Assembly (NCBI GenBank): GCA_019058015.1
Contig: JAHLWH010000121.1
Coordinates: forward strand, 1-14,496
Source: Promethearchaeota archaeon
Lineage (GTDB): Archaea > Asgardarchaeota > Lokiarchaeia > Sigyniarchaeales > SOKP01
Reading direction: 5' to 3'
DNA: 14,496 bases
The notes beneath the pieces were generated by a model, which was not told where the DNA came from, ran no database searches, and worked only from the letters and a program-made list of their open reading frames with translations. This document shows positions 1 through 9,629 of the stretch, one piece after another. Made by a program: the position numbers and the translations under genes. Position 1 is the stretch's first letter; each line of letters starts with the position of its first letter.

Positions 1-111
1 ATTGGAATGCCTTTTATTTTTTTAGAAAAAGAATATAAGAGAGAATCGTATAGCCAGCTCACGACGAAACTCGAAGCCTTTAAAGAAATTTTGCGAGGTG
101 TTAAAAAATAA
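1..111 (+). CDS. 3' end of a 2-hydroxyacyl-CoA dehydratase family subunit (HgdA/HgdB/FldBC-like), partial
   Basis: Frame 1 reads IGMPFIFLEKEYKRESYSQLTTKLEAFKEILRGVKK*, matching the family C-terminal pattern G.P...LE.(D/E)Y......Q..T(R/K).EAF.E.L; it lies directly upstream of a paralogous subunit. Confidence 0.8.
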   Translation: MGMPFIFLEKEYKRESYSQLTTKLEAFKEILRGVKK

Positions 112-167
112 CAGCACAAAAACCCAAAAGTAAAATATTAAATTCATCTTTAAAAATTAAAAATTTA

Positions 168-1367
168 ATGGGACGCCATTATTTAGCTATAGAACAAGCC
201 TATCGAGATGGAACCCCTACGGCATGGGCTACTAGTGGGACTTCTGTTGAGATGCTTTATACTTTTGATGTTCAACCAATTTTACCTGAAAATGCTGCTA
301 CTATTTCTGCCGCCCAGAAAGTTTCAAAAAAATATATTGAATCTGCTGAAGACTTAGGTTTTTCATATGATTTATGTTCTTATTTTAAAACAAATGTTGG
401 AGCTATGCAAAATAATGCACCTATTGACTTAGGAGGAATAAATCCTCCAACATTTATGGTCGCAGCAGATGTAATTTGTGATACTCATGTGAAATGGTTT
501 CAAGTCCAATCTCAAAGATATAAAGTTCCACTATATATAATTGATGTCCCTCATGTCACTAGCAATACAACAAATAAACAAAAGGAGTATTATCAGTTAT
601 ATGTAGAAGAACAGATGCTTGAATTAAGGGATTGGATCTCAGAAATAACTAAAAAAGAATATAATGAAGAAAAATCAAGAGAGGTTATTACTAATTCCTA
701 CGAGTTAAGTGAATACTGGATTAAGATTTTTGAATTAAGAAAAGCAATACCTTGCCCGGTATCAACCAAAGATACTTTCGGTGGTTTATTTCCACTTTTT
801 ACTATGCCCGGGTTAAAAGAGCCAATTAGAGTATTTAAAAAAATGTATCAAGAGACTCAAGAAAGAGTAGATAATGGAATCGGGGCTTTAGAGAACGAAC
901 AATACAGGCTACTTTTTTCAGGAATCCCATTCTGGTATAATTTAAAATTTTTTAGTATTTTGGAACAATGGGGAGCAATTATTGTATTTGAACCTTATAC
1001 TTATTCTTTTGGAAAATTCTTAGATCCATCAATGAGCAAGGAGTATATAATCAATAATCCGATCAAGGCTATGGCAAAAATTATGTTGTCTTTCTGGTAT
1101 ATATACGATCTTGAAACAAGAGTGAGGGAGTTCAAAAGAGTGATAAAGGAGTGGAAGATTGATGGTTTAATATTGCATAACAATCTTTCCTGTCGACCCA
1201 ATTCATGTGGACTATATGATCTTAAACAACGGCTTATGGAAGAAGAAGGTATTCCCTCTATAGTAATTGACTCAGATATGAATGATCCACGGAAGATGAA
1301 CGAGGAAATATTAAAAAACCGGCTGGAAGTCTTTATGGAAATATTAAGAAAAAGTGAAAAGCGCTAA
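168..1367 (+). CDS. 2-hydroxyacyl-CoA dehydratase subunit (HGD-D / benzoyl-CoA reductase B-C family, [4Fe-4S])
   Basis: Motifs AWATSGTSVE, PEN, GFSYDLCSYFKT, ICDTHVKWFQ, IDGLILHNNLSCRP, GIPSIVIDSDMNDPR; three conserved Cys. The true start may be ATA at 108 (see findings). Confidence 0.92.
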   Translation: MGRHYLAIEQAYRDGTPTAWATSGTSVEMLYTFDVQPILPENAATISAAQKVSKKYIESAEDLGFSYDLCSYFKTNVGAMQNNAPIDLGGINPPTFMVAADVICDTHVKWFQVQSQRYKVPLYIIDVPHVTSNTTNKQKEYYQLYVEEQMLELRDWISEITKKEYNEEKSREVITNSYELSEYWIKIFELRKAIPCPVSTKDTFGGLFPLFTMPGLKEPIRVFKKMYQETQERVDNGIGALENEQYRLLFSGIPFWYNLKFFSILEQWGAIIVFEPYTYSFGKFLDPSMSKEYIINNPIKAMAKIMLSFWYIYDLETRVREFKRVIKEWKIDGLILHNNLSCRPNSCGLYDLKQRLMEEEGIPSIVIDSDMNDPRKMNEEILKNRLEVFMEILRKSEKR

Positions 1368-1389
1368 TTTTATTTCTCTTAAACATAAT
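1236..1389 (+). repeat. Copy 1 of duplicated dehydratase 3' end (last 43 codons, stop and ~20 nt downstream)
   Basis: Aligns without gaps to 3603-3734: 33/43 aa and about 95/132 nt identical; post-stop TAATTTTATTTCTCTTAAACATAAT vs TAATTTTTTCTCTCTTTAACTTAAT. Confidence 0.93.
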
Positions 1390-1402
1390 TATGTTTTTTT
1401 TT
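1381..1402. terminator. 16-bp perfect palindrome AAACATAATTATGTTT running into a T9 tract; likely terminator between convergent genes
   Basis: Palindrome at 1381-1396 and T-tract at 1394-1402, just after the dehydratase stop; oligo-T termination is typical of archaea. Confidence 0.4.
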
Positions 1403-1448
1403 GCAAGCTTTATAATGAGCTTTAAATCCTTGAGGACTGACTTTTCTT

Positions 1449-3278
1449 TTACATATTGGACATGTCTTTTTTAAACTTTCTTCCATTTTTCTTCTTCCAT
1501 TTCCCTGATTCCAGTATTGGATATTTTTTTAGAAAATGTTCTGAATTGGTAGAGTAAGTATTCATTAAATTATCAAAACTTACATATTCATCTGAAAAAA
1601 TTCTTTCATAAAATGCTCTCATTTGCGATGAAGACTTAAATGAAACAGTGAATTTATCTTCCATAATATCCTTAGGGTCTTTACCTTGATTCAATAATTC
1701 CTTTGTTACTCTTTTTCTCAACTCCGTCTTAATTAATTTGAGTGAATCCAATTCTTTTCCAAGAAGTATCCTTGAAAGAGGTTTTACAAATTTCTTTGAA
1801 TAAAGCCAAGCCCAAGATACACCAAGTTGATTTGCTAATTCCTCTTTTTTCATTTTACTTTTAGAACTAATTAACCATGATTTCCATTGTTCAACAGAAT
1901 AACCCTTTAATATTCTCTGAATTTTAGCATTATATATCTTTAAATTCTCCCAATCTATAATATTCGCTTCGACTAAAGCTCTTAAATCTCCGAATTTATT
2001 TCCCTCAAACCATTCTTGTATCTTATAATTTAGTGTTTTTGAGTCCATATCTATTGAGACAGCGATATCTTTTAGATTAAACTTCTCATTATCTTTGATT
2101 AGAGATTCTACAACAGGTTTTAAAACCAATTCTTGTAATTCTTGAGATGAACCAAATTCCTGAGAAAAACGTTCAGAAAATGTACTACTAGCATAATTGT
2201 ATTTATAAGAACTATTAAGAATTTTAATAATTTTCTCATGTTTAACACCAAGAGAAACAAGAGCAATATAATCAAAAATAGGAAGTTCTACTTCAAGTTT
2301 ACTACCTCCACTACCCCCTGAAACCATATTAAGTCCATTAGGCCATAATGTTCCTTTAATTTTTTTGTCTTTTATATAATGAATATAATTTTGAGTTAAA
2401 TCATATTCATGTGAGAGAGCAGCATACCTTTCCTTATGAAGCTCCAACTTAGTTATTTTAAAGTGTTTTTTAATAACTTCTTCTATGATAAAATTATATA
2501 ATTTTTGAGATTTCCAACTACCTCTATTAAAATCCAACCAATTTGATATTGCTTGAAGATCTTGTATATTATCTTCATCAATTTGTGGTTCAATCCGCTG
2601 AATTTCTGTTTGAATCGAATTTAATTCCATTTCTAAAGCAAGGCATGTCGCTTTCATTAAATATCTAGAGATTTCTTCTCCGGTCATAATAGATTTAATT
2701 TTACTATTTAATGTATCATCTATGTGATTCTTTATTCTTCTATTGAAATTCTTAGTATAACCAATATAGGGTAGATTTAAATAAGGAATTAATTTACTCT
2801 CTAATTTATATAACACATATTTATAACCATATTTCAATGGATTCTTAGATATTTTCTCAAAATCAGCTTGACCTTTAACTTTATATCCAGGAATATCAAC
2901 CCAATTTCTTAAATCAGGCTGAATATTTGACTTAGTTGAAAATTTATCCGATATTTGCTTTAAAGAAAGTAAAAAATTCTCAATAACAAATTTTGAATAT
3001 TCAAATAATTTATTATACAGTTTCTTATTTTTATATTCTTTAAGAATTTTAAATTTTAAATCATTATAACCGTCTAAAGTGTATTTTTTATATAATTTTT
3101 CTATTACATCATTATTTTTCTTTTTCTCTAAATCTTTATATTCATTATTGTTTTTTGACCCTCCATCATTTTTTATGATTTGATTTATCTCATTCATTTC
3201 TTCTTCTGATTCTTTGCTATTAGTCTTTTTAATTTTCAAATCATTACTCTTTATTATATTAATAGGGACAATATTCAT
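1449..3278 (-). CDS. Free-standing GIY-YIG endonuclease with C-terminal HTH-like DNA-binding repeats (homing-endonuclease-like)
   Basis: YVLYKL...PYIGYTKNFNRRIKNH (GIY-YIG motifs with catalytic Arg and His), ALSHE (Glu), WPNGLNMVSGG (Asn motif); HTH-like segments NLKDIAVSIDMDSKTLNYKIQEWF and KKEELANQLGVSWAWL. Confidence 0.8.
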   Translation of the reverse strand: MNIVPINIIKSNDLKIKKTNSKESEEEMNEINQIIKNDGGSKNNNEYKDLEKKKNNDVIEKLYKKYTLDGYNDLKFKILKEYKNKKLYNKLFEYSKFVIENFLLSLKQISDKFSTKSNIQPDLRNWVDIPGYKVKGQADFEKISKNPLKYGYKYVLYKLESKLIPYLNLPYIGYTKNFNRRIKNHIDDTLNSKIKSIMTGEEISRYLMKATCLALEMELNSIQTEIQRIEPQIDEDNIQDLQAISNWLDFNRGSWKSQKLYNFIIEEVIKKHFKITKLELHKERYAALSHEYDLTQNYIHYIKDKKIKGTLWPNGLNMVSGGSGGSKLEVELPIFDYIALVSLGVKHEKIIKILNSSYKYNYASSTFSERFSQEFGSSQELQELVLKPVVESLIKDNEKFNLKDIAVSIDMDSKTLNYKIQEWFEGNKFGDLRALVEANIIDWENLKIYNAKIQRILKGYSVEQWKSWLISSKSKMKKEELANQLGVSWAWLYSKKFVKPLSRILLGKELDSLKLIKTELRKRVTKELLNQGKDPKDIMEDKFTVSFKSSSQMRAFYERIFSDEYVSFDNLMNTYSTNSEHFLKKYPILESGKWKKKNGRKFKKDMSNM

Positions 3279-3599
3279 TTTTTTTGAAATTTGGCTATAG
3301 TCTAGATATCGACTAAAATTTGGAGTTTAATCTCTTGATAAAGAGGAACCATCAATAATCTTATAAAACGGGAGCCAAACTCCACTGGTAAGGGATTATT
3401 CAAAGAAAATACACTTATTCTTCTTATTATCTAATACGAAATGTTTTTTTTTAACATATAGAGAGTGTTAAATCTTAGATTTATGGAATATTCATTCTAA
3501 AATATTAGATTTTCACATTTAAAACTTTTTAACCCAAATGAATTTCAAAATATAAAAAATCACTTATTCTCAATAATTATGTTGAATTTATCTTTAATC

Positions 3600-3734
3600 T
3601 TAATGGATGAGGAAGGAATTCCATCCCTTGTTATTGAATCGGATATGAACGATCCAAGAAAAATGAATGAAGAACAACTTAAAAATAAATTAGAAAGCTT
3701 TATGGAAATCTTACAAAAAAACAAAAAAGGATAA
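3600..3734 (+). pseudogene. Orphan (displaced) 3' end of the dehydratase gene
   Basis: Reads LMDEEGIPSLVIESDMNDPRKMNEEQLKNKLESFMEILQKNKKG*, same length as and homologous to 1233-1367; no homologous upstream portion. Confidence 0.92.
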
Positions 3735-3867
3735 TTTTTTCTCTCTTTAACTTAATCGGGTCTTTTTCTAATTTTTTAACTTTCTATTTCTAAATTATTA
3801 GAAAAATTCTATTTTATTTTTAATCATAAGTAACTAAATAAAATGTTAAAATTGTCTGTATACCTTT

Positions 3868-5073
3868 TCAAAGAGTAAAAAATTTTATTGCTGTCATAAC
3901 TGCTCCACTTATTATAGGAACAGAGAAATTGTCATTTATCCTCAATGATAAAACCTCAGTGAGAGCTGCAGTAATTCCACCTAAAATAAGTAGAATTAAA
4001 GGGAATTCCAAAACAGTATAAATTATATATCCGCAGATGAGTGCACAACCAATATATGCTAATGTACCTTCAACTGTTTTTTTAAATATCTTATGTCGAC
4101 CAAAACTTAACCCAAAAATTTTACTAAAGATATCACCAAAGATAAGAAAGGTTAAAGCGGCGAAAGCAATCTCTATCTCAAATAAAAGTATTGTTATGAA
4201 AACTGCAACTAAGAATATTGTCATTGATGAAAATTTTTTAGACTCATCTTTCTTAAATAATGACTTAATTCTTACTGTTAAAAGTTCATTTGTTCCCTTA
4301 TGAATGAATCTAATAATATCAAGGAGTATAAAAACTAAACATACACATCCGATGATTATGAGGGCTACCATTTTTGAGTAACAAATATAAAATACAATGA
4401 AAAAAATGGCAAATGGTCTTAGAGCAACCCTCCACCATGGAGATTTGAATGTTTTATCTTCAATAATTATTTTTTTGAAGACTACTATGTTATAAATACC
4501 AATTGAAATAATGTAAGCAAGAATTAAACAAAAAAAGATATTATGAGGAACATCAGTATAATATATAAAAACAGAATATGCTAATAGAGGAAGTACAATG
4601 ATGCCTATAATTTCTCCAGTTTTAGTAATATAAGCAAAAATTGCTACAATAATAAGCAAAAAACAAAGAAAGTAAAAAATCTCCGGACCGATAAGAATAT
4701 ATTGTACTAAATAAAAAAGCATTATTCCTGTAGCACAAGCTACACCTTGACCACCACGAAAGCTAATATAAAAAGGTAGGATATGCCCAACAATAGCCAC
4801 TAAACCACTTATTTGCGCAAATATATAATCTGCTCCAATACTTTGTGTTAACAAAATAACAAATAATCCCTTTAAAGTATCAAATATTGCCGTAGGAATA
4901 GCATATACAACTCCTAAAGTATGATATACATTTAAGGTACCAGCGTTACAAGTACCTTCTTTTCTTATATCAATGCCTTTTAATCTACCAAAAAAATAAG
5001 CAGGTAAAATCGACCCTATAAAATAACCAATCAAAATACTTAAAATATTTATTATTATTTCACTAAGTTCCAT
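3868..5073 (-). CDS. PlsY-like glycerol-3-phosphate acyltransferase domain fused to a CTP-dependent polyprenol/diacylglycerol kinase-like domain
   Basis: N-half: GYFIGSILP, DIRKEGTCNAGTLN, FDTLKG, GHILPFYISFRGGQGVA. C-half: FGDIFSKIFGLSFGRHKIFKKTVEGT, INDNFSVP (dolichol/phytol kinase/Dgk1-type motifs); polytopic membrane protein. Confidence 0.85.
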   Translation of the reverse strand: MELSEIIINILSILIGYFIGSILPAYFFGRLKGIDIRKEGTCNAGTLNVYHTLGVVYAIPTAIFDTLKGLFVILLTQSIGADYIFAQISGLVAIVGHILPFYISFRGGQGVACATGIMLFYLVQYILIGPEIFYFLCFLLIIVAIFAYITKTGEIIGIIVLPLLAYSVFIYYTDVPHNIFFCLILAYIISIGIYNIVVFKKIIIEDKTFKSPWWRVALRPFAIFFIVFYICYSKMVALIIIGCVCLVFILLDIIRFIHKGTNELLTVRIKSLFKKDESKKFSSMTIFLVAVFITILLFEIEIAFAALTFLIFGDIFSKIFGLSFGRHKIFKKTVEGTLAYIGCALICGYIIYTVLEFPLILLILGGITAALTEVLSLRINDNFSVPIISGAVMTAIKFFTL

Positions 5074-5288
5074 ATATCCCCACCATCATCAATAATCATC
5101 TAGACTTAAAAAATGTTATTGAAAAACTGTTCTACTAAACAAAAGTTAATATATTAGGAAAAGTATCGTTGTTAAATAAAATGAAAATTAAAAAATACGT
5201 ATTTTTACTTATTCAAAAAAAAATATAAGATTTTTTTAGAAAAATGAAAATTAAATCCAACTATAATTACGAATATTAAACAACCATA

Positions 5289-5648
5289 TTAAGATTGCTT
5301 TTTTAATAACTTGAATAAATTCATATATTGCTCAATATAACTCTCATCACCAGTTTCCTCATATTTTACTAATAGTTCTATTGATTTTGATAAAGTAAAA
5401 GATTTTTCTGCGATCTTTGTTTTAATATCCTCTTTCTTCCGCTGCGACATCGTAATCTTAAGTTGATTTTCCATTCTATCTATATCTTTCTGCATTTCTT
5501 CTTGTTGTACTTTTAATGCAGCAGTTCTTTTACGTCTTTCTTCAAGTTTAATACAATTTTCGCAAATTTCGCTTGTAGAGTTTTGATCTCTAAAAAATGG
5601 ATTTGAACAAAGTTTACACCGAACTAATTTTGTTTTGAGTTTTTTCAT
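5289..5648 (-). CDS. Hypothetical protein with N-terminal CxxC-x12-CxxC zinc finger and coiled coil
   Basis: CKLC...CENC followed by a K/E/Q/R-rich helix. ATG at 5648 (MKKLKTK) is preferred over the track's 5669 start because the ATG is kept in the second repeat copy while the upstream frame has indels. Confidence 0.7.
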   Translation of the reverse strand: MKKLKTKLVRCKLCSNPFFRDQNSTSEICENCIKLEERRKRTAALKVQQEEMQKDIDRMENQLKITMSQRKKEDIKTKIAEKSFTLSKSIELLVKYEETGDESYIEQYMNLFKLLKKQS

Positions 5649-5752
5649 ATTTAAAAAAAAAGTATTCAATTTTATGAAAAGTAATAAAATTTAATATTAA
5701 ATATCTTTTTATTTCCAAGAATCTTACAATTATGTTTCTTAAAAATTAGCAT
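5634..5752 (+). repeat. Left direct repeat of island 2 (~119 bp)
   Basis: TTTGAGTTTTTTCAT...TTTTATGAAAAGTAA...TTAAATATCTTTTTATTTCCAAGAATCT...AAATTAGCAT recurs at 9630-9748 at roughly 90% identity; includes the first 5 codons of the Zn-finger gene. Confidence 0.93.
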
Positions 5753-5986
5753 TTTTTTTATTTTCTACATTGATATCACCCAATTCTTTATATTTGGTAA
5801 TTCTATAATCTTTAAATTATTCATATAAAAAGTACCTCATACATTTCGATTTATTCGAATTTTTTTTAATATTTCTTGTTGATTCCTAACGATTAAAACC
5901 GCACGAATGCGTTGTTCAACCTATTCAATCTTTGATTGAATCAGGAGCATTAAAGAATTTTTTAGCGCAAGAACTTAGAAATCATC

Positions 5987-6061
5987 ATAATATTTTTATA
6001 ATAATTTTGAAAGTATACATAATAGTCAACAAATCCTGACTAAAAAAATTTAATATAAAAA
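5987..6061 (+). repeat. Repeat A copy 1 (promoter/operator-like, ~75 bp)
   Basis: ATAATATTTTTATAATAAT...AATAGTCAACAAATCCTGACTAAAAAAATTTAATATAAAAA recurs at 7037-7110; contains TATA-like boxes and inverted repeat TAGTCA-N8-TGACTA (6023-6042). Confidence 0.85.
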
Positions 6062-6113
6062 GTGTGAAAGAATGAAATTAAAAACTAATTTAAAATTTAT
6101 TAGGAGATATTAA

Positions 6114-6364
6114 TTGAAGAAAAGAGATTGGATTATCCTAGGATTCATTAATTCGGTAATTTGGTTTTTTGGAGGCTTAATTTTATTCTTGGTATTAGGA
6201 AATGGAAAAATTTGGTTCTTAACCCCATTATAACATTTGCAGGAGCATTAGGTTATTTTATCAGTTGGTGGTTGATTGGATGGCCCATTTTCAATCTCAA
6301 AAACAAAAAGCGTCTAAGGAAACAAGTAAATGAAATTAATATCAGTTTAATATCTAAAAAAAGG
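6114..6364 (+). pseudogene. Frameshifted small two-TM membrane protein (immunity-like)
   Basis: AGGAGA (6102-6107) then TTG 6114: MKKRDWIILGFINSVIWFFGGLILFLVLGNGKIWFLTP. One extra base at the CCCC run (6223-6226) joins it to IITFAGALGYFISWWLIGWPIFNLKNKKRLRKQ, which resembles the 6661 protein. The original 3' end is uncertain because it runs into repeat B. Confidence 0.65.
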
Positions 6365-6410
6365 ATTTTTTTTATTTGGCGATGTTTAAATCACTTAGAG
6401 AAGGAAGGAA
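6365..6410 (+). repeat. Repeat B copy 1 (46 bp)
   Basis: ATTTTTTTTATTTGGCGATGTTTAAATCACTTAGAGAAGGAAGGAA; 45/46 identical to 6988-7033. Confidence 0.93.
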
Positions 6411-6418
6411 GAAAAAAA

Positions 6419-6631
6419 ATGAATATACTTATTGAATTGGGATGTGGTGTTCCAGGTGCAGTTGTATATGTGTTGACTTGCGGTTCTATTTGTGGTCCCA
6501 GCGGTCCTGGTTTTCCTGTTTGTGCAGTCATATGCGGTACTATTTGTGCTGCTATGGTTATTGCTATTTGCTACTTTATTGGACTTTATGGTATGAGTAC
6601 TGATTGTTGGGGAATATGTGGCATGATTTAA
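6419..6631 (+). CDS. Cys/Gly-rich hydrophobic peptide, halocin-C8-like; probably the truncated C-terminal domain of a larger precursor
   Basis: 70 aa MNILIELGCGVPGAVVYVLTCGSICGPSGPGFPVCAVICGTICAAMVIAICYFIGLYGMSTDCWGICGMI with 9 Cys in CxxxC spacing, almost no charge, GC-richer than flanks. Confidence 0.6.
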   Translation: MNILIELGCGVPGAVVYVLTCGSICGPSGPGFPVCAVICGTICAAMVIAICYFIGLYGMSTDCWGICGMI

Positions 6632-6660
6632 AATAATTTTCAAAAGGGAGATGAAAAGAT

Positions 6661-6936
6661 ATGGAAAAAGATATGGAAAAGGATTATGTTAAAAGGAATG
6701 CGGATATCATGGGATTAACAATTATTATAACTTTCTTCATTGTCGGTTTTTTATTATGGTTTTTCGTAGGAGGTGCGAGTTTACCATTTGCCATTGGAAT
6801 TGCATCTGGATACGCACTTGGTGGTTTAATAGGATGGATCTTAATAAGAGGACACATAATACGAAAAAATAAAAAAAGAATTCAAAAGAAACAAGCAGCA
6901 CTCAACTCAATGAGGAAAAATAAAACAATCGGCTGA
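6661..6936 (+). CDS. Small two-TM membrane protein, putative cognate immunity protein
   Basis: 91 aa, two Gly-rich hydrophobic helices and a basic tail; GGGAG RBS; starts 29 nt after the Cys-rich peptide stop. An alternative start at 6673 comes from a tandem ATGGAAAARGAT duplication. Confidence 0.75.
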   Translation: MEKDMEKDYVKRNADIMGLTIIITFFIVGFLLWFFVGGASLPFAIGIASGYALGGLIGWILIRGHIIRKNKKRIQKKQAALNSMRKNKTIG

Positions 6937-6987
6937 ATAAATAATATTATTAGATTACTGAGAAGAAAATTGAATATCCAATCTAAA

Positions 6988-7033
6988 ATTTTTTTTATTT
7001 GGCGATGTTTAAATCACTTAGAAAAGGAAGGAA
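6988..7033 (+). repeat. Repeat B copy 2
   Basis: 45/46 identical to 6365-6410; lies 3 nt before repeat A copy 2. Confidence 0.93.
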
Positions 7034-7036
7034 TAA

Positions 7037-7110
7037 ATAATATTTTTATAATAATGTTGAATATATTCAAAATGGTCAAAAAATCCTGACTAAAAAATTT
7101 AATATAAAAA
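7037..7110 (+). repeat. Repeat A copy 2 (promoter/operator-like)
   Basis: Matches 5987-6061; TGGTCA-N8-TGACTA at 7073-7092; ends directly at ATG 7111. Confidence 0.85.
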
Positions 7111-7569
7111 ATGTCCTTAATGGGAGTAAAAGAAAAGATCAAGAATTTTTGGAAAAACTATAAGAAAAACACGATATGGGTTAGTATTGGACTTTGTATG
7201 GGCTTGATATACATGAAGTGGGTGTTATTTTATTTCGGAATTATAGACTTGATGCTGGCGATCTTTCTTACAGTTTTGTACCCACTACCAATATTTTTCG
7301 TATATTATGGTAGAAAATTAAAACACCAAAAGATCATTTTTAAAATATGGTTGGTAGGATTAGTCGGATTTGTTTTCGGTGGTATTTTATGGATTTTTCT
7401 CGGCTATGTACTTATTACTGCTCCTTGGGCCCCCTTACGAGTTTTGATTTTGGATGCAGTGTTAAGAGGTAGAATTCTACTCCTCCTCCTACCTACTTTA
7501 TGTGTAATTGCAGGATACATAATGTATAGAATAGGTAAAAAAAGAGAATGGAGACTTCCTTCGACTTAA
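7111..7569 (+). CDS. ~150-aa four-TM membrane protein, paralog 1
   Basis: KEKIKxFWK N-terminus, four hydrophobic segments, APWA loop, GYIMYRxGKKR C-terminus; about 70% identical to 8628-9089. The start could be 7120. Confidence 0.85.
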   Translation: MSLMGVKEKIKNFWKNYKKNTIWVSIGLCMGLIYMKWVLFYFGIIDLMLAIFLTVLYPLPIFFVYYGRKLKHQKIIFKIWLVGLVGFVFGGILWIFLGYVLITAPWAPLRVLILDAVLRGRILLLLLPTLCVIAGYIMYRIGKKREWRLPST

Positions 7570-7604
7570 TAATTTGAAAAATTAAAATATGTTCCTACTC
7601 GTAG

Positions 7605-8054
7605 GTGGTTGTATTGAAGATAAAAGAAAAGATTAAGAAATTTTGGAATGAATTTAAAAAGCGTTGGTTATGGATTAGCATTGGAAATTATATGGGTATA
7701 AATATAACATTGTGGTTATTATATTTTTACGGGTTTGCAATTTTAGGAATGACACTAACTTTTTCACTTGTAGCTCCCTTAATTCTACTAGGTATTTATT
7801 ATATTAGAAAATCTAAATATCAAGCAGATATCTATAAGTATGTTTGGATAATCGGTGGTGCGGCATCTATAGGGGGTTTAATTTGGTTTGGAATCGCTTA
7901 TATTCTTCAAGGTGCACCGTGGGCTTCTTTTCGTGATTATCCTCTTATTTTCAGAATTCCCTTTGATATTATAACAACTGTGCTGTGTTGGGCTTTGGGA
8001 GGGTATATAATGTATAGATTAGGAAAAAAGAGAGACTTCAGACCTTTCATATAG
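7605..8054 (+). CDS. ~150-aa four-TM membrane protein, paralog 2
   Basis: Same motifs (KEKIKKFW, WISIGNYMG, APWAS, GGYIMYRLGKKRDFRP); the most diverged copy; GTG start. Confidence 0.85.
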   Translation: MVVLKIKEKIKKFWNEFKKRWLWISIGNYMGINITLWLLYFYGFAILGMTLTFSLVAPLILLGIYYIRKSKYQADIYKYVWIIGGAASIGGLIWFGIAYILQGAPWASFRDYPLIFRIPFDIITTVLCWALGGYIMYRLGKKRDFRPFI

Positions 8055-8055
8055 A

Positions 8056-8127
8056 GCGTTAGGAGTTATTATCTGCGAAAGACTACGTACTGAATCATGT
8101 TGGGCGATTTGTTGTGAATATGAATAA
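8056..8127 (+). pseudogene. Remnant C-terminal tail of a second Cys-rich peptide
   Basis: Reads ALGVIICERLRTESCWAICCEYE*; CWAIC matches the terminal CWGIC of 6419-6631; followed by a spacer homologous to the one after that peptide. Confidence 0.6.
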
Positions 8128-8171
8128 TAAAAAATCTTTTAAAAAATCTTTCAAATAGGAGTTGATAAGGC

Positions 8172-8453
8172 TTGAAAAAAAGAGGATTAAGAATGTTTAT
8201 CGTTATACCATTAATCAATTCAATCTTTTTATTCTTTTTTATAATTTTACTTTCCTATTTTTTAAGGGGAACAGCCATAATAACCGATATTTTCAGTGCT
8301 TTTTGGAATGCATCTGTATCATTTATAGTATTGTGCTTATTTTTTAGAAGTAAGTGGTTCCAAGGTCAAGTAAAAAAATACAAAAAAATAAAATGTCCCA
8401 TAGATCTAAATGAAAAATATTTCCAGTTAGAGAATGAGACAAATGAAAATTAG
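8172..8453 (+). CDS. Small two-TM membrane protein, putative immunity protein
   Basis: AGGAG RBS, TTG start, MKKR...INS N-terminus like the 6114 gene, two hydrophobic helices, basic tail. Confidence 0.65.
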   Translation: MKKRGLRMFIVIPLINSIFLFFFIILLSYFLRGTAIITDIFSAFWNASVSFIVLCLFFRSKWFQGQVKKYKKIKCPIDLNEKYFQLENETNEN

Positions 8454-8470
8454 TACGAAAAAATATTATA

Positions 8471-8623
8471 ATGGATTACGAATCTAAATTGGATAAAGTA
8501 AAACATAAGAATTCTGAAATAATTGTTTATTGCAAGTCCGGGAAAAGGAGTCAGCAAGCAAGTGAAATTCTCGTCGAGTATGGCTTTACAAAAGTATATT
8601 TGTTACCCATGACATATTCGTAA
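8471..8623 (+). pseudogene. Internal fragment of a rhodanese-like domain
   Basis: Reads MDYESKLDKVKHKNSEIIVYCKSGKRSQQASEILVEYGFTKVYLLPMTYS*; EIIVYCKSGKRS...L...GFTKVY is the rhodanese active-site loop region; lacks the N-terminal DVR...GHI and C-terminal GG...W motifs. Confidence 0.85.
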
Positions 8624-8627
8624 ATAG

Positions 8628-9089
8628 ATGATTGTAATGAATGTAAAAGAAAAGATCAAGGGTTTTTGGAAAGCCTATAAAAAGAACTGGTTATGGATTA
8701 ATATTGGAAATTGTATGGGCTTAACGTTCATGAATTGGTTATTATTTTTTATTGGAGTTATAAATTTGGTGATACCAATCCTTTTAACAGTTTTTTACCC
8801 ATTTGCGATATTTTTAGCGTATTATGGTCGGATATCAAAACACCAAAAGATAATATCTAAAATTGTTTTGATAGGATGTGGCGGATATGGTTTCGGTATT
8901 ATTATGTGGATTTTTCTCGGCTATGTACTTATTGCTGCCCCTTGGGCACCCTTACGAGTTTTGGTTTTGGATGCAGTGTTAAGAGGTAGAATTCTACTCC
9001 TACTTATGGTGACTTGCTGTGTAATTGCAGGATACATAATGTATAGAGTAGGAAAAAAAAGAGAATGGCGACTTCCTTCGATTTATTAA
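8628..9089 (+). CDS. ~150-aa four-TM membrane protein, paralog 3
   Basis: Ungapped alignment to paralog 1 (about 107/152 identical); homology continues ~20 nt past the stop. Confidence 0.85.
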   Translation: MIVMNVKEKIKGFWKAYKKNWLWINIGNCMGLTFMNWLLFFIGVINLVIPILLTVFYPFAIFLAYYGRISKHQKIISKIVLIGCGGYGFGIIMWIFLGYVLIAAPWAPLRVLVLDAVLRGRILLLLMVTCCVIAGYIMYRVGKKREWRLPSIY

Positions 9090-9629
9090 TTTGAAAAATA
9101 AAAATATAATTTTTTTTTTGAAGTAAATTGAATATTTAGAAAGTTCATTATAATCTTTTAAACTTATAATTTTCTTAAGAATTCTTGTTAAATATGATTT
9201 TCTGAATAACTTGAAAAATGAGTAACTTACTTTCTCCTACTTTTACTTATTTAATTATTAATTTCCTTTCATATTTTTCATATTTTTCTTAAAATAAATC
9301 TATAATCTCGAAATATTGGGATTTAAATGCAGAGTTACAAAAATTACTAAAAAGAAGCGAAGAATAAAAAATGGAAAGAATGACTTCGAATAAATAATAT
9401 ATATTTAGATTTAAGATTATAAGAAGAGAAATTTAATAATTATTAGCATCAAACTCAAAATTTATTGATTGAAAACATTAAAATCTTGATTTAAAGTTTT
9501 ATAATATAGATAAAATTTAAATGCAGATATAGAATCTTATATATCTTAATTAATTTAGGTTATTTGATAAAAAAATAAGGAATATAATTCTGGATAGTCA
9601 GTTAAATATATTATAGATTAATTGATTTA

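Follow-up and report, generated by a model that had tools for sequence, protein, structure and literature searches.

A convergent GIY-YIG endonuclease-like gene between a foreign and a displaced native end of a dehydratase gene in an Asgard archaeon: a candidate free-standing homing cassette

A gene for a 2-hydroxyacyl-CoA dehydratase component (HGD-D family) in an Asgard archaeon has its 3′ end in two copies, with a free-standing GIY-YIG endonuclease-like gene between them. The locus lies on a 14,496-bp contig (JAHLWH010000121.1) of a 3.84-Mb metagenome-assembled genome of the Promethearchaeia, labelled G000 below; the whole contig was analysed and is referred to here as the window. The end attached to the gene (copy 1) and a second end farther downstream (copy 2) stand in direct orientation, 2,367 nt apart. 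They enclose a single open reading frame (ORF), which is encoded on the other strand and is no part of the host reading frame. Coordinates of all features are collected in Table 1.

A first-pass annotation, made from the letters of the window alone, had reported that the last 43 codons of the dehydratase gene occur twice, with 33 of 43 residues and ~72% of nucleotides shared, 16 conserved residues recoded, and both copies intact. Every number that we checked proved right. The copies agree at 33/43 residues and at 92/129 bases without the stop codon (95/132 with it), use different codons at 16 of the 33 conserved residues, and contain no indels and no stops. Their likeness extends 33 nt beyond the stop (1236–1400 versus 3603–3767, 73%). 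It breaks off abruptly at 3603, 5′ of which we found no likeness to the dehydratase gene. The frames holding the two copies match each other by blastp (E 2.5e-19), and copy 2 by itself matches Pfam HGD-D (E 1.1e-7), so the resemblance is not a product of chance; the observation of two diverged copies of the dehydratase end is confirmed. Nei-Gojobori estimates of divergence give a nonsynonymous value (pN) of 0.131 and a synonymous value (pS) of about 1, which means that synonymous sites are saturated. Because pN remains at 0.131 at such synonymous divergence, we conclude that each copy evolved in a lineage of its own as a functional gene end, as the annotation had proposed when it described both as real gene ends under selection. 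GC content at third codon positions is 0.37 in copy 1, 0.26 in copy 2 and 0.22 in the first 260 codons of the gene (168–947).

Comparison with close relatives identifies which of the two ends is native. Three genomes of the same genus (G001, G002 and G004) carry an ortholog of the dehydratase with 93–96% protein identity, and no homolog of the ORF was found in any of the four other genomes of this genus (g1), these three included. G001 and G004 have one gene end each and thus represent empty sites. Copy 2 is identical to the functional ends of G004, G001 and G002 at 122/132, 121/132 and 130/132 bases, respectively; the corresponding values for copy 1 are 100/132, 96/132 and 96/132. The G000 gene tracks that of G004 at ~97% identity up to position 1255, and 1256–1367 then contain 32 mismatches (71% identity). 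G004 is copy-1-like through ...GGTATTCC and copy-2-like after that point. At the other side of the insert the junction lies at 3599–3603, and the alignment to the relatives picks up again at 3600–3603. Relatives that lack the ORF carry the copy-2 type of end, which makes copy 2 the native end, now displaced, and copy 1 the foreign one. The displacement was very recent, because copy 2 differs from the working end of G002 at just two positions. Copy 2 is a recent, presumably unused orphan, and the host gene now ends in a foreign segment. The annotation had looked to empty-site relatives to tell the two ends apart, and the ends of G001, G002 and G004 are indeed of the copy-2 type, not of copy 1. 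Presence/absence polymorphism at this site among close relatives is thus shown. The 3′ third of the gene is itself a mosaic within the genus: G000 and G004 are ~77–80% identical to G001 and G002 over 948–1247, compared with ~97% over 168–887. At the protein level copy 1 is nearest to the genus type (33–36/43 residues), and other genera reach at most 30/43.

The arrangement is also found in assemblies other than that of the window. We compared Logan contigs with positions 1–6000. A 5,230-nt contig from the probable source run spans 486–5715 with three differences, and one 8,080-nt contig from X7, an unrelated study, covers 4–3307 and 3308–3734 at ~97% identity. Contigs from X6 and X5 span the left junction (885–2389) and the right junction (3073–3638), respectively. 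Because contigs from three other studies bridge the junctions, the arrangement is present in several natural populations, and the misassembly that the annotation had allowed for was not found. In the X7 population the spacer upstream of the ORF is longer by 150 letters, which lie between 3307 and 3308; the non-coding part of the insert is therefore itself variable.

The ORF was correctly placed by the annotation, between the copies and convergent to the host gene, although its reading frame in the window is not intact. Two database relatives, P0001 (99%) and P0002 (94%), are 633 aa long and end in a C-x2-C...H-x3-C tail. The dinucleotide TC follows position 1492 in the contigs of X5, X6 and X7 and is missing in X1; the window ORF therefore carries a 2-nt deletion, which shifts the frame near its 3′ end. 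The tail is still encoded out of frame, as a tblastn-type comparison matches 1382–1504 to residues 592–633 of P0001 at 93%. An intact 633-aa frame would stop at 1377–1379, 9 nt from the dehydratase stop, and this stop-to-stop distance suggests a compact, co-evolved unit.

Several lines of evidence assign the ORF to the GIY-YIG endonucleases. In an alignment of 12 family members, Y171, G173, R181, E291, G315, L316 and N317 are invariant and Y157 and H185 nearly so; in an alignment of 16 sequences the same columns remain invariant, the leucine nearly so. We take these residues to form the catalytic motifs (the Tyr of GIY, the Tyr-x-Gly of YIG, and the Arg, Glu and Asn), with roles assigned after I-TevI. 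Seven of the 12 family members match Pfam PF01541 at E ≤ 0.05 (best E 6.6e-8). A predicted structure of the catalytic domain (predicted local distance difference test score 89.2) was compared with known structures in an exhaustive VIA search. The best match is the I-TevI catalytic domain (1ln0_A; Z 9.3, root-mean-square deviation 2.7 Å, 90/92 residues aligned), followed by T4 EndoII (Z 6.3), a GIY-YIG restriction enzyme (Z 5.8) and the N-terminal GIY-YIG domain of UvrC (Z 5.3). On this model the domain has a GIY-YIG fold, and the protein is a predicted nuclease. The C-terminal half appears to carry helix-turn-helix (HTH)-like modules: HTH_23, HTH_28 and Sigma70_r4 match in 2–3 of the 12 family members, AraC-type HTH structures match with probability 0.8–0.92 (E > 1), and the tail matches Pfam zf-C2HC_2 (E 0.031). 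The I-TevI-like fold and the HTH-type matches in some family members agree with the annotation's description of a GIY-YIG/HTH gene. Other searches returned little. A full-length 633-aa model (predicted template modelling score 0.40) gave only noise in Foldseek, a profile search of the PDB found no nuclease at significant E (the UPF0213 structure 1zg2 appeared at E 0.22), and P0001 matched no PHROGs family. Rfam found no family in the window, introns of groups I and II as well as tRNA-like elements included. The ORF is free-standing, not intron- or intein-borne, and represents a new, sparsely populated GIY-YIG family with a large helical insertion.

This family is rare, with seven matches among 5.8 billion clustered proteins. 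Of the 135 genomes in the taxonomic family, 29 have it, and internal stops occur in 5 of 36 match rows. The family is patchy and decaying, and the window copy is in early decay. G000 has one more distant member, on contig C149. At the loci of 29 other family members we compared fragments running from stop to stop; three of these loci have a duplicated neighbour-gene end flanking the ORF, a recurrence that the annotation had asked after. Two of the three lie behind hypB in different genera (G145 and G082), where the orphans start ~5 codons apart and are both still open, which argues for separate events near one site in hypB. The third (G105) has an orphan 5′ fragment beside a radical-SAM gene. 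At an additional hypB locus (G067) the ORF abuts the hypB stop and no orphan is found. Which hypB end is native could be compared less sharply: the orphan is at least as close to relatives as the attached end is at 10/11 g2 loci, a weak result, since the margins are small, the genomes are non-independent and the nearest empty relative is 77% identical in amino acids. Family matches also lie inside open frames of 9,447 and 13,771 codons (G104:C8:26737–28173 and G118:C74:47714–48436), so the module may also occur within giant genes. Downstream of another ORF homolog (L035 3039–4534, G009:C32), two adjacent same-strand frames of 205 and 254 aa look like a single gene broken in two by a 114-nt gap; neither gave a search match.

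Two further nuclease-type genes in G000, of 437 aa on contig C239 and 717 aa on contig C7, repeat the layout seen in the window. Their stops lie 26–39 nt from the host gene stop, with a displaced native gene end beyond each. At both loci, relatives whose site is empty have an extreme end of the orphan type, joined without a break to the downstream flank, and the last 10–17 attached codons do not align. A foreign attached end with a native orphan is thus found at all three nuclease-bearing scars (window, C239 and C7). Two scars with ordinary cargo, C184 and C129, are complex or rearranged relative to related genomes, and the attached end of C184 is native through the stop. This contrast in layout between nuclease scars and ordinary-cargo scars is suggestive, but the sample is small.

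Table 1. Features of the dehydratase locus and of the other loci compared with it (window coordinates unless a contig is named)
Feature	Position	Strand	Remarks
HGD-D family (2-hydroxyacyl-CoA dehydratase component) gene, 399 aa	168–1367	+	Pfam PF06050, E 2.3e-67
Dehydratase gene as a hybrid	168–1367	+	Native-like to 1255, foreign from 1256 to the stop
Copy 1: attached, expressed gene end, 43 codons and stop, then 33 nt of 3′ flank	1236–1400 (coding 1236–1367; stop 1365–1367)	+	Foreign-to-genus sequence from 1256
Copy 2: displaced native gene end (orphan) and native 3′ flank	3603–3767 (orphan 3603–3734, within small frame 3579–3734)	+	
Free-standing GIY-YIG endonuclease-like ORF, 609 aa as it reads in the window	1449–3278	−	
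Out-of-frame rest of ORF C-terminus (C2HC zinc-finger-like tail)	1377–1504	−	Severed by 2-nt deletion near 1492
Predicted GIY-YIG catalytic domain, ~residues 154–320	2319–2819	−	With ~100-residue helical insertion
Spacer upstream of ORF and right part of insert	3279–3602		No likeness to relatives
PlsY-like gene, 401 aa, second insertion at the locus	3868–5073, within 3735–5285	−	PF02660 covers residues 15–189 only
C239 locus with nuclease-type ORF, 437 aa	G000:C239:27303–30804		Convergent behind phosphoglucomutase-like gene; PHROG 4645 'endonuclease', E 1.9e-17
C7 locus with nuclease-type ORF, 717 aa	G000:C7:17901–23643		Convergent behind 217-aa membrane-like gene; PHROG 314/7168 'homing endonuclease', E 5e-13 and 2e-6
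Contigs with gene-end duplications	C7, C62, C70, C80, C84, C91, C117, C118, C129, C153, C174, C184, C195, C207, C210, C239, C240, C264, C268, C272		G000
G145 (genus g2), hypB locus			Convergent ORF overlaps hypB stop; orphan hypB end of 63 codons, 68% identical
G082 (genus g11), hypB locus			Layout as in G145; ORF frameshifted; orphan of 67 codons, 70% identical
G105, radical-SAM locus			Orphan 5′ fragment of 64 codons (72% identical), ORF, complete radical-SAM gene

The explanation towards which we lean is that the locus holds a free-standing homing-endonuclease cassette that brings its own substitute gene end, working like the mobile ORFs (mORFs) of fungal mitochondria. The 3′ end of the dehydratase gene would have received an insertion, a 2,367-bp cassette (about 1236–3602). 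Its parts would be a foreign version of the last codons (37 to 43 of them), the convergent GIY-YIG gene with its stop abutting the host stop, and the upstream spacer; the insertion would have pushed the native end downstream. The enzyme may cut copy-2-type alleles somewhere in the last ~40 codons. Repair of the break from a cassette-bearing chromosome would then copy in the nuclease gene together with the recoded, uncut gene end. We conjecture that the first insertion involved one illegitimate join, which would have created the duplication, and that the cassette could later spread via ordinary homology on both sides.

Fungal mitochondria offer the closest known parallel, which the annotation had also drawn, and it is apt: the passages of PMC3630166 that treat mORFs describe the same anatomy of foreign end and native orphan. 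There, mORFs with a foreign gene C-terminus are reported at atp6 in Allomyces and at atp6, atp9, cox2 and nad3 in Glomus, and the corresponding passages of PMC6279837 report C-terminal duplications of atp6 and cob. According to these accounts, the inserted foreign C-terminal is expressed, the native C-terminal downstream matches ORF-less relatives, and the endonuclease was shown to drive mobility (PMC3630166; PMC6279837). The dehydratase locus likewise has an endonuclease ORF between an expressed foreign C-terminal and a displaced native C-terminal matching ORF-less relatives. As in the fungal cases, among which those passages include GIY-YIG enzymes, the copies are far apart in DNA and alike in protein. 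It differs in being on an archaeal chromosome and in a metabolic dehydratase gene instead of an organelle, and in the orientation of the ORF, which here is convergent on the opposite strand, whereas an mORF lies on the same strand and is often in phase with the host gene. The nuclease also differs, as it belongs to a new family with a large helical insertion, known from sequence and predicted structure.

Free-standing nuclease genes of T4-like phages provide a second comparison. The GIY-YIG (seg) and HNH (mob) genes are thought to cut the neighbouring gene in genomes that lack the nuclease and to spread with co-conversion of the flank, as the relevant part of PMC2790892 sets out. The archaeal gene resembles them in lying between genes with no intron or intein, and its catalytic domain is structurally closest to I-TevI. 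Unlike the phage genes, it has a cellular host, and its DNA-binding region is made of different HTH-like modules. A duplicated, displaced gene end is also not a feature of the phage genes as that part of PMC2790892 describes them.

Several observations weigh against the homing cassette. We scanned all 255 G000 contigs of at least 3 kb, the one genome scanned, for terminal fragments of ORFs of at least 150 aa that recur within 6 kb on the same strand past a gap. The scan returned 26 rows (~25 loci; 22 C-terminal and 4 N-terminal) of gene-end duplications around inserts of 0.35–5.4 kb. No Pfam nuclease family matched any of 30 insert ORFs from 18 loci. These ORFs include an enoyl-CoA hydratase, an N-acetyltransferase, hydrolases, ParB-DUF488, a P-type ATPase, MFS transporters, a glycoside hydrolase, a pyruvate-formate-lyase with its activase, and others, and eight had no match. 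In a PHROGs re-test of 10 unexplained insert ORFs, just two were nuclease-like. Because most inserts carry ordinary genes, such scars arise here without a nuclease in cis; with ~25 loci and mostly ordinary cargo, the duplication is a general insertion scar of the lineage, not a specific sign of endonuclease action. The same dehydratase end has also been duplicated independently around a PlsY-like gene in G002 and, in another genus, around a HEPN/minimal-nucleotidyltransferase (MNT) pair. Within the ORF family, flanking duplication is absent at 26 of the 29 other loci. Among 61 orthologous loci of GTDB species we found no donor for copy 1: three loci are at least 93% identical and all of the copy-2 type, the others are at most 68% identical, and the end closest to copy 1 is the copy-2-type end of G004 (36/43). 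The window protein itself scores below the PF01541 cut-off (19.1 versus 22.6 bits; E 0.0017), and Foldseek returned no match to the domain model at E ≤ 0.001, a failure that we attribute to the ~100-residue helical insertion in the catalytic domain. Finally, the cleavage of copy-2 alleles, the target site and the resistance of copy 1 are all putative, as they are deduced from sequence. The homing interpretation of the annotation therefore survives in part. The native and foreign ends, the nuclease fold and the recurrence speak for it; the duplication, with ~25 such scars of mostly non-nuclease cargo, is no specific evidence, and the window copy is frameshifted.

The main rival explanation, which we judge less likely, is that the nuclease gene is a passive passenger that took no part in the event. 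Here, DNA of a diverged relative, in which the ORF merely lay downstream of the dehydratase gene, would have entered by the general route of the lineage, with a homologous crossover in the gene and an illegitimate join. The concept is known from Rhs and type VI secretion system (T6SS) loci: the parts of PMC5361080 that deal with C-terminal displacement at Rhs, contact-dependent inhibition (CDI) and T6SS loci attribute it to homology-facilitated illegitimate recombination. As at those loci, a conserved gene body has received a new 3′ segment and the former one lies orphaned downstream, and serial events are possible, as at the G002 locus. The swapped ends of Rhs, CDI and T6SS genes, however, are functionally different toxin domains with immunity genes, whereas here the function is the same and the cargo is a nuclease. 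The comparable terminal duplications in G000 and the two additional independent duplications of the dehydratase end around non-nuclease cargo would fit a passive passenger, as would the right junction, which shares only ~3–4 nt (TTA) with the native sequence. Harder to reconcile with it is the exact arrangement shared by three different nuclease-type genes in G000: each is convergent and abuts the stop of its host gene, whose extreme end is foreign and whose native end is left as an orphan. The ordinary-cargo locus C184, by contrast, has a native attached end. In two genera, moreover, related ORFs have the same location behind hypB and the orphans there have kept an open frame, and the 9-nt spacing between the ORF and host stops again suggests a unit that evolved together.

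Integration by a site-specific recombinase, with the gene-end copy as the attachment site, is very improbable. Prophages integrating at the icd 3′ end bring a substitute end with them, and such an event would produce the same outcome, an attached substitute end and a displaced native one. The insert nevertheless consists of one ORF with no match to integrase families, the repeats are 73% alike and have no long identical core, and Rfam finds neither a tRNA-like nor another RNA element. We likewise found no convincing transposon-type inverted or direct terminal repeats around the insert. Least credible of all is a local tandem duplication that diverged in place, or a two-strain assembly chimera, either of which could yield two direct copies 2,367 nt apart: divergence in place is excluded because copy 2 is near-identical (130/132) to the G002 working end while copy 1 is synonymously saturated, and a chimera is refuted by independent assemblies from four studies that cover the junctions.

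Other insertions and remnants surround these loci. The PlsY-like insertion next to copy 2 is missing at this position in G001 and G004; in G002 it is 97.8% identical and is followed by a longer, decayed dehydratase 3′ fragment (L034 2828–3154). Farther downstream, the block at 5741–9629 encodes three paralogous small membrane proteins of ~150 aa each (7111–7569, 7605–8054 and 8628–9089). This block has no counterpart at the locus in G001 and G004, whose alignments skip from ~5740–5760 to 9630. In the other genus, the HEPN and MNT pair has the dehydratase stop on one side and, on the other, an orphan remnant of that gene's end (L105 6194–7368; JAEOUA010000001.1). We dropped a four-gamete argument that compared the cassette with and without the PlsY-like block, since the X7 contig match ends at 3734 with 151 letters remaining and X7 provides no cover on 3801–5200; absent contig cover is not evidence of absence. 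An apparent joint in X6 (3560 to 5387) was ignored as weak, with 21 letters only on one side.

Archaeal homing endonucleases are known mainly from rRNA introns and inteins. Among literature titles and abstracts we found no account of an archaeal GIY-YIG cassette that is free-standing and replaces a gene end; a homing-endonuclease homolog is mentioned in one Asgard paper, in a passage with another context (PMC8813620). The anatomy is known from organelles; what is new here is the archaeal chromosome, the convergent ORF of a new GIY-YIG family and the metabolic gene.

The displaced gene ends across the G000 genome suggest a frequent, as yet undescribed way in which these archaea gain genes. More tentatively, and with less than even confidence, we propose that Promethearchaeia chromosomes gain genes largely by 'terminal displacement', in which an incoming cassette supplies its own version of the adjacent gene's end and the native end is orphaned. 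Homing-type nucleases of at least three unrelated families may exploit or drive this route at the ends of conserved housekeeping and metabolic genes. If so, mitochondrial mORFs would have in these loci a counterpart on archaeal chromosomes, one that could be what drives the mosaicism of 3′ gene ends. If the enzyme does cut the copy-2 allele, the family would constitute a new and testable group of nucleases with sequence specificity, from the prokaryotes most closely related to eukaryotes, and the mORF strategy would not be confined to organelles. Such cleavage would also account for the mosaicism, within one genus, of the 3′ third of the dehydratase gene, whose alleles are ~77% identical.

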